Of a stretch of DNA of 64,000 bases, positions 39,196 to 41,211 are shown piece after piece. A program made the translations under genes and the position numbers. The stretch lies in the NCBI RefSeq assembly GCF_014647935.1, contig NZ_BMQD01000004.1. One strand, 5' to 3'. This DNA comes from Planomonospora parontospora. GTDB taxonomy: Bacteria; Actinomycetota; Actinomycetes; Streptosporangiales; Streptosporangiaceae. How positions within the stretch are numbered: the first letter of the stretch is position 1; every line of letters begins with the position of its first letter. The notes under the pieces are model-generated. The model did no database searches, was not told the DNA's origin, and saw only the letters and a program-made list of their open reading frames with translations.

Positions 39196-41211
39196 ATGGA
39201 GGAGAGCCGGGACATCACCGTCAACGCGGGCGACATCGCCCGGCTCGCCGACGTGGGACGGGCCGCCGTCAGCAACTGGCGCCGCCGCCACGAGGACTTC
39301 CCGCAGCCGGTCGGCGGCACCGCCTCCAGCCCGCTCTTCTCCCTCTCCGAGGTCGCCGCGTGGCTGCGCGGCAACGGCAAGCCCTTCGAGGTCTCCCTCG
39401 GCGACCTGGTCTGGCAGCGGATCCGCACCACCGCCGACGACCTGCGGCTGGGCGGGCTGGTGGGCCGGATCGGCGCCTTCCTGCTCTTCCTGCACCGCGA
39501 GCCCGGCGCCTGGGACGAGTACGGCCTGCGCCCCCCTCCGGGACGCGACGGGCACAGCGGGGACGACGGGCACGACGGGGACGGTGAGCGCGCCGTACTC
39601 GGCGGGAACGGCGGACGGCCCCTCCCCGGGCAACCTCTCCCCGGGCGGACCCTCGCCGAGCGCGTCGCGGCCGCCACGGCCGACCTGCCCGGCTCCGCCG
39701 AGCCGCCGCCCGGTGACCGCGCCCTGCTCCGGCTGGTCGCCCGGCTGGCCGCGGCGGACGGCCCGCTGGCGGCGTTCGAGTTCCTCTGCGAGCGCTACGC
39801 CGAGGCCCACTCCCGGCAGCTCGCGGTGACCAGGGAGGACGTGGCCGCGCTGATGACCCGGCTGGTCGTCCCGGACGGCGGCACCGTGCTGGACCCGGCC
39901 TGCGGCGTCGGCACGCTCCTGCTGCCCGCGGGCACGCCGATCGGCCAGGAGCTCAGCGAGACGAACGCCCGGCTCGCCGCGGTCCGGCTGCTGCTGCGCG
40001 GCACGCCCGCCCGGATCACCGCCGGCGACTCGCTCCGCGAGGACCGGCTGGCCGGCGAACTCGCCGACGCGGTGGTCTGCGACCCGCCGTTCAACGAGCG
40101 CGCGTGGGGCTACGAGGAGCTGACCGGCGACCCCCGCTGGGAGTACGGCCTGCCGCCCCGCGGCGAGTCCGAGCTCGCCTGGGTGCAGCACTGCCTGGCC
40201 CACGTGCGGCCCGGAGGGCTGGTGGCGATCCTGATGCCCGCCGCCGCGGCCGGACGCCGCCCGGGCAAGCGCATCCGGGGCAACCTGCTGCGGGCCGGTG
40301 CCCTGCGGGCCGTCGTCAGCCTCGCCCCGGGCGGGCCCGACCTGTGGCTGCTGCGCCGTCCCGACGGGGGCCGGCCCCCCTCCCGCCTGCTGCTGGTGGA
40401 CGCGGCCGAGGACCTGTCGGCGGTGGAGCCCGCCTGGCGCGCCTACCTCGAGGACCCGGAGGCCGAGCCGTCCGGCGCCGGCCGTACGATCCGGATCATC
40501 GACCTGCTCGACGACGAGGTCGACCTGACCCCCGCCCGGCACCGCCCGCAGCAGGGCGCGCTGGACTTCGCCCGCGACTTCGCCGACGCGCTGGACCGGT
40601 TCCGGGCGGCCTCCGCCACGCTGGCGGACGCGCCTCCCGCCCTGGAGCCGCCGCTCGAGCGCCACGACCTCCCGGTCACCACGATCGGCGAGCTGGCCAA
40701 GGCCGGCCTGGTCACCGTCCTGACGGCCCCGCCGAGGATGGCCTCCGGCACCGGGCCCGTCCCGGTCCTGACCGCCGAGGACGCCGCGGCGGGCGCGCCG
40801 CCCTCTGGGGGCACCGTGCTCGACCCCGCGCTGGTCATGGTCAGGCCCGGCGACGTCGTGGCCACCGCCCTGGGCGCGGTCCGGGTGGTCGCCGAGCCGG
40901 GCGCGGCGCTGGGACCGCAGCTCACCCTCTACCGGGTGGACCCCTCCCGGCTCGACCCCCACTTCCTGGCCGGATGCCTGCGCTCCGCCGGGCGGTCCGC
41001 CCACCCCGGCTCCAGCCGGCTCGACGTGCGGCGGGCCCGGGTGCCGATGCTGCCGATCACCGAGCAGCGCCGGTACGGCGCGGCCTTCCGCGAGCTGACC
41101 GCGCTGGAGGACGGGCTCCGTGAGACGGCGGCACGGGGAGAGACCTTGATCAGGCTAAGCTTTGACGGACTGGTCGACGGCCACCTGAGGCCGTGCGACC
41201 GAGGGGTGTGA
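39196..41211 (+). CDS. HTH-domain + gamma-class N6-adenine (amino) DNA methyltransferase + HsdS-like TRD fusion (orphan M-S protein)
   Basis: The N-terminal HTH is IARLADVGRAAVSNWRRRHEDFPQP. Motif I is GTVLDPACGVGTLLL and motif IV is VVCDPPFNERAWGY. The C-terminal roughly 270 aa resemble a type I specificity-subunit TRD, ending ...RVPMLPITEQRRYGAAFRELTALEDGL. No endonuclease gene is adjacent. Confidence 0.75.
   Translation: MEESRDITVNAGDIARLADVGRAAVSNWRRRHEDFPQPVGGTASSPLFSLSEVAAWLRGNGKPFEVSLGDLVWQRIRTTADDLRLGGLVGRIGAFLLFLHREPGAWDEYGLRPPPGRDGHSGDDGHDGDGERAVLGGNGGRPLPGQPLPGRTLAERVAAATADLPGSAEPPPGDRALLRLVARLAAADGPLAAFEFLCERYAEAHSRQLAVTREDVAALMTRLVVPDGGTVLDPACGVGTLLLPAGTPIGQELSETNARLAAVRLLLRGTPARITAGDSLREDRLAGELADAVVCDPPFNERAWGYEELTGDPRWEYGLPPRGESELAWVQHCLAHVRPGGLVAILMPAAAAGRRPGKRIRGNLLRAGALRAVVSLAPGGPDLWLLRRPDGGRPPSRLLLVDAAEDLSAVEPAWRAYLEDPEAEPSGAGRTIRIIDLLDDEVDLTPARHRPQQGALDFARDFADALDRFRAASATLADAPPALEPPLERHDLPVTTIGELAKAGLVTVLTAPPRMASGTGPVPVLTAEDAAAGAPPSGGTVLDPALVMVRPGDVVATALGAVRVVAEPGAALGPQLTLYRVDPSRLDPHFLAGCLRSAGRSAHPGSSRLDVRRARVPMLPITEQRRYGAAFRELTALEDGLRETAARGETLIRLSFDGLVDGHLRPCDRGV

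Follow-up and report, generated by a model that had tools for sequence, protein, structure and literature searches.

A conserved phosphatase, DNA methylase and kinase gene unit in Planomonospora parontospora and its possible descent from a defence-associated cassette

Background

Within a 64-kb stretch of Planomonospora parontospora DNA (hereafter, the window; ~72% G+C), a gene at 39196-41211 on the plus strand encodes a 671-amino-acid N6-adenine DNA methyltransferase (hereafter, the methylase). It lies between a gene for a PP2C-family Ser/Thr phosphatase and a gene for a Hanks-type Ser/Thr kinase, and the locus raises the question of what a DNA-modifying enzyme does in the company of two signalling enzymes. 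An initial annotation of the window had proposed that the methylase is an orphan, sequence-specific writer of N6-methyladenine (m6A), carrying its own target-recognition domain (TRD) and an N-terminal helix-turn-helix (HTH), and that it resembles epigenetic regulators such as CcrM and MamA more than the modification half of a restriction-modification (R-M) system.

Kinases are known in a few methylation-based defence systems (Pgl/BREX-2 and MADS), and their role there is unclear. The family to which this locus belongs is simple, widespread and comparatively tractable, as one chain does all of the DNA recognition and one dedicated kinase accompanies it. The window's clade adds one dedicated phosphatase and has no nuclease that would complicate the genetics.

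In the present work, we compare the locus with its counterparts in genomes and metagenomes, with its more distant relatives and with known systems. The three genes prove to be a conserved unit. Our preferred interpretation, which we hold with slightly less than even confidence, is that this unit is a domesticated, nuclease-free derivative of a kinase-coupled cassette, in which an orphan m6A methylase with a fixed target is tied to a kinase-phosphatase switch.

Results

We scanned one genome per species, collecting 80 loci with 10-kb flanks, and clustered all of their open reading frames (ORFs). Only three families recur across these loci, namely the methylase (78), the kinase (73) and the PP2C phosphatase (68), and the recurring order is always PP2C on the minus strand followed by methylase and kinase on the plus strand; the remaining neighbours reflect genus-level synteny. 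The phosphatase gene is upstream on the opposite strand in 68 of the 80. A metagenome scan contributed 80 further loci, and a kinase gene is found no more than 2.5 kb downstream of the methylase in 124 of the 144 loci (86%) that have at least 1 kb of downstream sequence. We refer to this arrangement as the triad, defined as a divergent PP2C gene upstream and a co-directional gene for a kinase-only Hanks kinase downstream of a gene for an HTH-HsdM-TRD fusion. The window has the triad layout; among 72 loci with both flanks available, 65 were scored as having the kinase, or 66 when counting L025, which the script had missed. The two signalling neighbours named in the initial annotation are correctly identified, and their linkage to the methylase is conserved across orthologous loci.

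Methylase identity to the window protein tracks taxonomy, at 78% within the genus, ~75% in Streptosporangium, ~62% in Sphaerisporangium, ~59% in Nonomuraea and ~55% in Pseudonocardiaceae. The chromosomal setting is one of housekeeping genes (prfC, type IV pilus and trehalose genes). Judging from these comparisons, the triad appears to be inherited vertically and family-wide in Streptosporangiaceae, and it is present also in some Pseudonocardiaceae. A mobile-element origin was considered and rejected: no full-length homologue was found on true plasmids or phages, viral contigs gave only HTH-sized matches, and the lone “plasmid” match to the methylase is an 11.85-Mb Nonomuraea replicon.

No nuclease was found among the main ORFs scanned around the methylase within the window, and the fetched flanks (~10 kb) of 80 PP2C-type loci contain no homologue of HsdR, PLD or SNF2-NOV. 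The earlier remark that no restriction endonuclease is adjacent holds for both sets.

The methylase ORF shows strong third-position bias (G+C at third codon positions, 0.96), and its product is 100% identical to one database protein. It matches the Pfam family N6_Mtase (PF02384) at 92.6 bits, above the curated cutoff of 20.4 bits (E = 3.8e-26). Motif I, which binds S-adenosylmethionine (SAM), is DPACGVGTLL (residues 233-242; 39892-39921) and precedes the catalytic motif IV, CDPPF (residues 295-299; 40078-40092). The motif order and the profile match are those of a gamma-class N6-adenine methyltransferase, the class to which the enzyme had first been assigned. In a profile search against solved structures, HsdM subunits came out on top, the best being PacII M1 (7vru_A; 5.7e-36). 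An AlphaFold2 model built with 37 homologues (mean pLDDT 85.6; pTM 0.70) predicts disorder only at residues 119-140 and retains the full HsdM catalytic fold with high model confidence.

For the wider family, a search of 1.84 billion cluster representatives returned 470 at E < 1e-30; ten that were looked up belong to Streptomyces, Kitasatospora, Spirillospora/Actinomadura, Phaeacidiphilus and Herbidospora. Motifs were counted in 131 sequences, each representing one 50%-identity cluster. Among these, motif I hardly varies (129 have its D, 126 the first G and 127 the second G). At the first position of motif IV, N is found in 43, D in 28, H in 19, A in 10 and S in 8, with others in the remainder, and the aromatic residue of this motif is absent in about a fifth. 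The window's own clade differs in that 114 of 120 close homologues and 69 of 72 PP2C-type loci retain DPPF, which is, by this conservation, under clear purifying selection. Since catalysis is under selection in its clade, the window methylase is probably an active enzyme. Mutated catalytic residues in orthologues had been named at the outset as evidence that would speak against an m6A writer; such changes are found in the wide family, and the window's own clade has kept its motif. In a Streptomyces-type clade, motif IV is fixed as HPPF (eight of eight loci). The loci of this type (L082, L123, L127, L130, L132, L137, L139, L158 and others) encode the methylase, a protein of ~270 amino acids that has no Pfam match, and a kinase with tetratricopeptide repeats (TPR), and in S. 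uncialis and Kitasatospora this arrangement sits in a conserved mfd-mazG-eno region.

Residues 1-60 of the methylase (39196-39375) form a predicted winged HTH of the excisionase/MerR type, with the recognition helix AAVSNWRRR. The hidden Markov model matches are weak but concordant (mad1, 3.4e-4; PDC-M06B, 3.8e-4; phrog_2620, “excisionase and transcriptional regulator”, 4e-4; HTH_17, 0.088). The structural model places helices at residues 11-17, 22-31 and 50-59 and a strand at 46-49, which corresponds to a helix-turn-helix followed by a wing; the four matches and the model agree with the N-terminal HTH of the initial annotation. This is the most conserved domain of the methylase (83% identity among orthologues), and its stretch VGRAAVSNWRRR is nearly invariant in the 131 cluster representatives. 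With the peptide pattern VSNWR[RK]R, we also found viral contigs (L168-L171) that carry HTH-only relatives of residues 5-72 at 42-45% identity, which places the HTH in a phage excisionase/regulator-like group.

At the other end of the chain, an HsdS-like TRD (residues 481-618) is followed by a long C-terminal helix (residues 619-666), the two spanning 40636-41193. The helix resembles the conserved-region helix of HsdS, and the TRD fold and the helix were both recognized by fold comparison. Neither Methylase_S (PF01420) nor any other Pfam family was matched by residues 487-671, even with the threshold relaxed to E <= 5. The assignment of an HsdS-like TRD, also part of the first description, thus stands by fold comparison only, sequence detection with Pfam having failed. 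Among orthologues the domain is alignable, with a mean identity of 62% and a minimum of 54%. Residues 113-172 (39532-39711) form a linker that varies in sequence, is partly disordered and has many G, D and P residues. In Streptosporangiaceae orthologues except those of Nonomuraea, it holds a short conserved T-x-D-L-P motif (AATADLP), which is, speculatively, a candidate phospho-acceptor or docking site. T42, in the wing of the HTH, is a further candidate for phosphorylation.

The kinase gene (41239-42132, plus strand) starts 27 bp 3' of the methylase gene, has the ribosome-binding site GGGGAGGG, and is probably co-transcribed with it. Its product of 297 amino acids consists of a kinase domain only (Pfam Pkinase, 3.1e-45; PknB kinase domain, 1.3e-48), with the catalytic motifs GxGxxG, VAVK, HRDLKPTN, DFG and APE all intact. 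At PP2C-type loci the kinase is 74-96% identical to that of the window, and its conservation exceeds that of the methylase at all 68 such loci compared; its identity in Streptosporangium (87-90%) is near that of the neighbouring prfC, which encodes the release factor RF3 (90-92%).

The phosphatase gene (38314-39111, minus strand) is divergent from the methylase gene, with its ATG at 39111. It encodes 265 amino acids assigned to the PP2C family by Pfam (PP2C_2, 2.4e-14; PP2C, 2.7e-11) and NCBIfam (Stp1/IreP PP2C, 8.5e-65), and the translation contains metal-binding motifs. A second PP2C gene, whose product is a 57%-identical paralogue, lies at 28951-29841 (plus strand) beside prfC (27254-28918, minus strand); it is found at that position only in Planomonospora, Planobispora and Streptosporangium loci.

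Between the phosphatase and methylase genes lies an AT-rich region of 84 bp (39112-39195), placed at exactly these coordinates by the initial annotation, which is a candidate divergent promoter and operator. The sequence occurs once within the window. An alignment of 18 sequences from Streptosporangiaceae, Pseudonocardiaceae and Amycolatopsis, covering two orders, has 27 invariant columns in this region, and the CAT at 39109-39111, the start of the PP2C gene, is invariant as well. A structured RNA in the region was considered and rejected, an Rfam search having given no match. A strong palindrome and a consensus sigma-70 promoter were likewise rejected: a strict sigma-70 consensus scan of 39112-39195 gave no match, and a repeat finder detected no inverted repeat of 8 or more bases there. 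Of the palindrome first reported in this region, what stands is a small imperfect repeat read from the sequence, TGAAG-CA-CTTCA (5+2+5; 39132-39143). It overlaps an invariant decamer, TTCACAAGCA (39140-39149), and the palindrome and decamer together (39132-39149) make up a candidate binding site for the HTH. The sequence TGAAGCACTTCACAAGCA is a candidate operator element in this region.

By eye, a -10-like hexamer, TACTCT, is found at 39182-39187, with its end 8 nt ahead of the methylase start codon; on the PP2C side, a TTTACT stops 6 nt short of the ATG. The closeness of these hexamers to the two start codons suggests that both divergent mRNAs may be leaderless. Inverted repeats of the TTCAC/GTGAA type occur also upstream of two distant family members (L082 and L084). 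Because conservation extends beyond any promoter hexamers and the recognition helix of the HTH is nearly invariant, autoregulation of the methylase through its HTH at the candidate operator is plausible.

Relatives at 40-54% methylase identity were compared by their genomic context. At L098 (49% identity; span 1435-15351), DrmA (955 bits), DrmB and DrmC are followed by the methylase and a kinase-TPR protein, and this locus is a DISARM system with a methylase of the present family in its modification slot. The kinase-TPR gene there is followed by one for a 1247-amino-acid RecD-like protein, which has a full-length match to the PADLOC candidate PDC-S68 (1488 bits). A PLD-methylase-kinase arrangement, recognized by PLD homology, is found at at least six more loci (L043, L100, L101, L103, L111 and L118). 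Elsewhere, an HsdR-YgjP gene precedes the methylase and then the kinase (L074, L099, L113 and L114); in S. anulatus (L081), the methylase is followed by a complete hsdMSR set and then the kinase; and the methylase lies between a Wadjet system and SNF2/Eco57I-like genes (L084) or adjoins pPIWI-RE (L085). The kinase carries TPR repeats in four of five defence-linked loci scanned, and also in L098 and L087, whereas the triad kinase has none. From these contexts, the methylase-kinase pair, part of a large actinobacterial family, is a portable cassette that other actinobacteria use as the modification module of several kinds of restriction system. A literature search found no description of a PP2C-methylase-kinase unit or of the kinase-linked module from which it appears to descend, most subscription-journal papers being outside its coverage.

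Upstream of the triad in the window, a gene for a flotillin/SPFH (YqiK-like) protein of 740 amino acids (30890-33112, plus strand) overlaps by 4 nt a gene for a 1731-amino-acid protein with DUF3686, DUF7902 and AAA domains (33109-38304, plus strand). Across Streptosporangiaceae, Micromonosporaceae and others, the flotillin keeps 75-98% identity. Adjacency of the pair to the triad is confined to some genomes of Planomonospora, Planobispora and Streptosporangium, and in the closest relative, L001, the pair is absent from this position. We considered it as a missing effector of the triad and ruled it out on account of the broad conservation of the flotillin, this patchy adjacency and the absence in L001; since it is next to the triad in only some genomes, we take it to be an independent module. 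No literature on DUF3686 (PF12458) was found, again with most subscription-journal papers outside the coverage of the search. Downstream, a phosphoribosyltransferase-alpha/beta-hydrolase fusion of 482 amino acids (42213-43661, minus strand) has a weak match to the PADLOC ShosT model (4e-4); it was found only in L001 and partly in L068, so we regard it as variable cargo next to the triad. Beyond it, a type IV pilus cluster at 43813-54054 encodes PilB, a second T2SSE-family ATPase (PilT-like), PilC, a prepilin peptidase and a pilin-like protein with He_PIG Ig domains. This cluster and a SARP/BTAD-NB-ARC regulator at 18321-21926 (minus strand) are ordinary chromosomal context.

Discussion

A TRD that does not diversify, identities that follow taxonomy, the retention of DPPF and the lack of a nuclease together fit a fixed-target orphan better than an R-M system engaged in an arms race. 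Under the interpretation that we prefer, the methylase would amount to HsdM and half of HsdS in one chain, with an excisionase-type HTH placed in front. By analogy with type I systems that have half-S subunits, it would probably dimerise through its C-terminal helix, and the dimer would recognise, and place m6A at, a single fixed DNA target that is probably symmetric. A minimal Hanks kinase would be made from the methylase transcript, and PP2C would be transcribed in the opposite direction from the shared, conserved and probably leaderless promoter region, which the HTH of the methylase would probably bind in an autoregulatory manner. Kinase and phosphatase would then form a reversible switch acting on, or scaffolded by, the DNA-bound methylase. 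The ancestor would have been a portable methylase-kinase cassette of the kind that serves DISARM, HsdR and type I loci in other actinobacteria. The version in Streptosporangiaceae and some Pseudonocardiaceae has PP2C and lacks both the nuclease partner and the TPR part of the kinase, and it would since have been passed on vertically as an orphan, phospho-regulated module for epigenetic or DNA-state signalling.

Several observations weigh against this interpretation. Six loci have PP2C and the methylase but no kinase (L020, L035, L089, L092, L094 and L097), which indicates that the kinase is dispensable in some lineages; L035 has the same downstream genes as L017 and looks like a clean kinase deletion relative to it. 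(Some of these kinase-less loci lie on contigs of 259-709 kb.) About half of the 131 family representatives have a non-canonical motif IV, and a clearly dead copy with CAPPV in its place (P0141) still sits within a PP2C-methylase-kinase triad, from which it follows that the methylase-kinase partnership is independent of catalysis across the family. The initial proposal of an orphan, sequence-specific m6A writer that may be controlled by reversible phosphorylation is partly supported. It largely agrees with our preferred interpretation and with the intact motifs, the absence of an adjacent nuclease, the non-diversifying TRD and the retained DPPF of the window's clade, and sits less well with the state of motif IV in the wide family. 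Every relative with a recognisable context is defence-linked. The best PADLOC matches of the triad kinase are to PD-T4-6 abortive-infection models (2.4e-96, compared with 1.5e-65 for mad6), and PP2C matches PDC-M21C (1.5e-6). Finally, the direction of evolution is putative, with loss of a nuclease preferred over its gain.

Several of these points favour the strongest alternative, which we consider less likely than our preferred interpretation: the triad would itself provide defence or abortive infection in the absence of a nuclease, the kinase being its effector and PP2C a brake or antidote. The methylase would mark self DNA or be the target of phage anti-restriction proteins, and unmethylated invader DNA or inhibition of the methylase would free the kinase to phosphorylate host or phage proteins, stopping the infection. 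This logic is akin to that of PrrC guarding EcoprrI, of the Stk2 and PD-T4-6 kinases, of the TerY-P triad and of Pgl. In addition to the defence contexts of the relatives and the PADLOC matches, such a system would account for the survival of the methylase-kinase link where the catalytic motif has been lost, which is what a methylase working as a sensor would predict, and the window triad is flanked by genes that vary among close relatives, including the phosphoribosyltransferase-hydrolase with its weak ShosT match. However, the PADLOC PD-T4-6 models match generic Hanks kinase domains, the triad kinase is missing the TPR sensor domain of its defence-linked relatives, and several lineages have no kinase at all. 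Where present, the kinase equals a translation factor in its degree of conservation, which we judge to be atypical for fast-turnover immune effectors. Vertical, family-wide inheritance with genus-level synteny and a conserved, non-diversifying TRD also argue against a defence role.

The state of motif IV bears on a further possibility, which we regard as improbable: that the methylase is mainly a DNA-binding regulator or scaffold that relies on its HTH and TRD and binds SAM as a ligand. The kinase and phosphatase would then determine its occupancy, and methyl transfer would be incidental or absent. The N-terminal HTH of some type II methylases, such as M.SsoII, represses divergent promoters, and in the present family no domain is better conserved than the HTH, the promoter region shows high conservation too, motif I barely changes whereas motif IV departs from the canonical form in roughly half, and HPPF has become fixed throughout the Streptomyces-type loci. 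A pure binder, however, would have no need of the purifying selection seen on DPPF in the window's own clade; the full HsdM catalytic fold is also retained in the model at high confidence. Very improbable, finally, is a split arrangement in which the methylase serves a classical R-M or DISARM system as its modification half and the restriction genes are encoded at another place in the genome, of which the inspected stretch covers 64 kb: relatives at 49-54% identity do adjoin DrmABC or HsdR, but no such gene is found within ~10 kb in 80 PP2C-type loci, the TRD is conserved across genera, and the third partner of the triad is a phosphatase.

Our preferred reading of the window also has a broader form, which we put forward more tentatively than the reading itself. 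The HTH-HsdM-TRD protein and its Hanks kinase may represent an unrecognised class of modular actinobacterial cassette that plugs into DrmABC, HsdR or SNF2-nuclease effectors, and that in Streptosporangiaceae has gained PP2C and been domesticated as a core module, linking the methylation or occupancy of a fixed motif directly to reversible Ser/Thr phospho-signalling. If the triad is indeed built around a phospho-regulated orphan methylase, it would provide a new route from signalling to the epigenome and a clear case of domestication of a defence module; if the kinase is instead an effector, it would amount to restriction without a nuclease. Under either reading, the conserved 84-bp promoter region and the near-invariant HTH offer direct experimental handles.

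Comparison with known systems

Type I R-M systems, including PacII with its M1M2S composition, keep HsdM and HsdS as separate subunits, whereas here M and half of S are fused and an excisionase-type HTH is added at the N-terminus. The single TRD is not diversifying, the partners at the locus are a kinase and a phosphatase, and HsdR is absent from the scanned window ORFs and from the flanks of the 80 PP2C-type loci. In the case of DISARM, the L098 relative stands in the methylase slot, immediately behind DrmA, DrmB and DrmC; in the window, the DISARM core proteins DrmA, DrmB (DUF1998) and DrmC (PLD) gave no PADLOC matches among the seven proteins scanned. The DrmM model is absent from the PADLOC matches of both the window methylase (E <= 0.01) and the L098 relative (E <= 1e-5). 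DISARM as described is not known to contain a kinase.

The MADS system (mad1-8) includes a small HTH protein (mad1), an N6 methylase (mad2), a specificity element (mad5) and a Hanks kinase (mad6), and its authors' detection model treats MAD6, MAD7 and MAD8 as mandatory (bioRxiv 10.1101/2023.03.30.534895). The likeness is apparent in that the PADLOC mad1, mad2 and mad6 models match window proteins; the difference is that the window has a single chain for HTH, methylase and TRD, and a PP2C besides. The mad6 match is at the level of the kinase domain only, and a weak match to the P-loop of mad8 (E 0.0017) falls on the unrelated flotillin-linked ATPase. With MAD7 and MAD8 absent and NCBIfam scores far under the cutoffs (MAD2, 20 bits vs 720; MAD6, 134 vs 460), membership in MADS is ruled out.

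Pgl, or BREX type 2, combines a kinase (PglW), a methylase (PglX), an ATPase (PglY) and a phosphatase (PglZ). PglX, however, is a type IIG-like protein of ~1200 amino acids, and PglZ has an alkaline-phosphatase fold, whereas the triad phosphatase is a PP2C enzyme. Searches at the locus gave no PglZ or PglY matches, and the NCBIfam PglW score is 44.7 bits against a cutoff of 990. The TerY-P triad (a vWA protein, PP2C and a Ser/Thr kinase) is similar in joining a Hanks kinase and PP2C to a variable third partner; here that partner is a DNA methylase, and no vWA protein was found at the locus beside the PP2C and kinase. As to the single-kinase systems PD-T4-6 and Stk2, the match of the triad kinase to PD-T4-6 models is at the level of a generic kinase domain.

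The orphan regulatory methylases CcrM, Dam and M. tuberculosis MamA are, like the triad methylase, conserved within their lineages, with no adjacent nuclease and apparently fixed specificity; a regulatory role of the triad methylase is putative. MamA is a single-chain methylase with its own TRD. None of the three is known to be linked to a kinase or phosphatase or to have an N-terminal HTH; CcrM is moreover of the beta class and Dam of the alpha class, whereas the window methylase is of the gamma class. The orphan status of the latter refers to the absence of an adjacent cognate restriction gene in the window, 64 kb being the part of the genome inspected, and in 80 orthologous loci. The likeness to CcrM and MamA drawn in the initial annotation captures the orphan-like outcome and does not extend to ancestry, the relatives of the triad methylase being modification modules of DISARM, HsdR and type I loci. 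Given that the methylase-kinase family has members in these defence loci, the comparison is best understood as an analogy of outcome.

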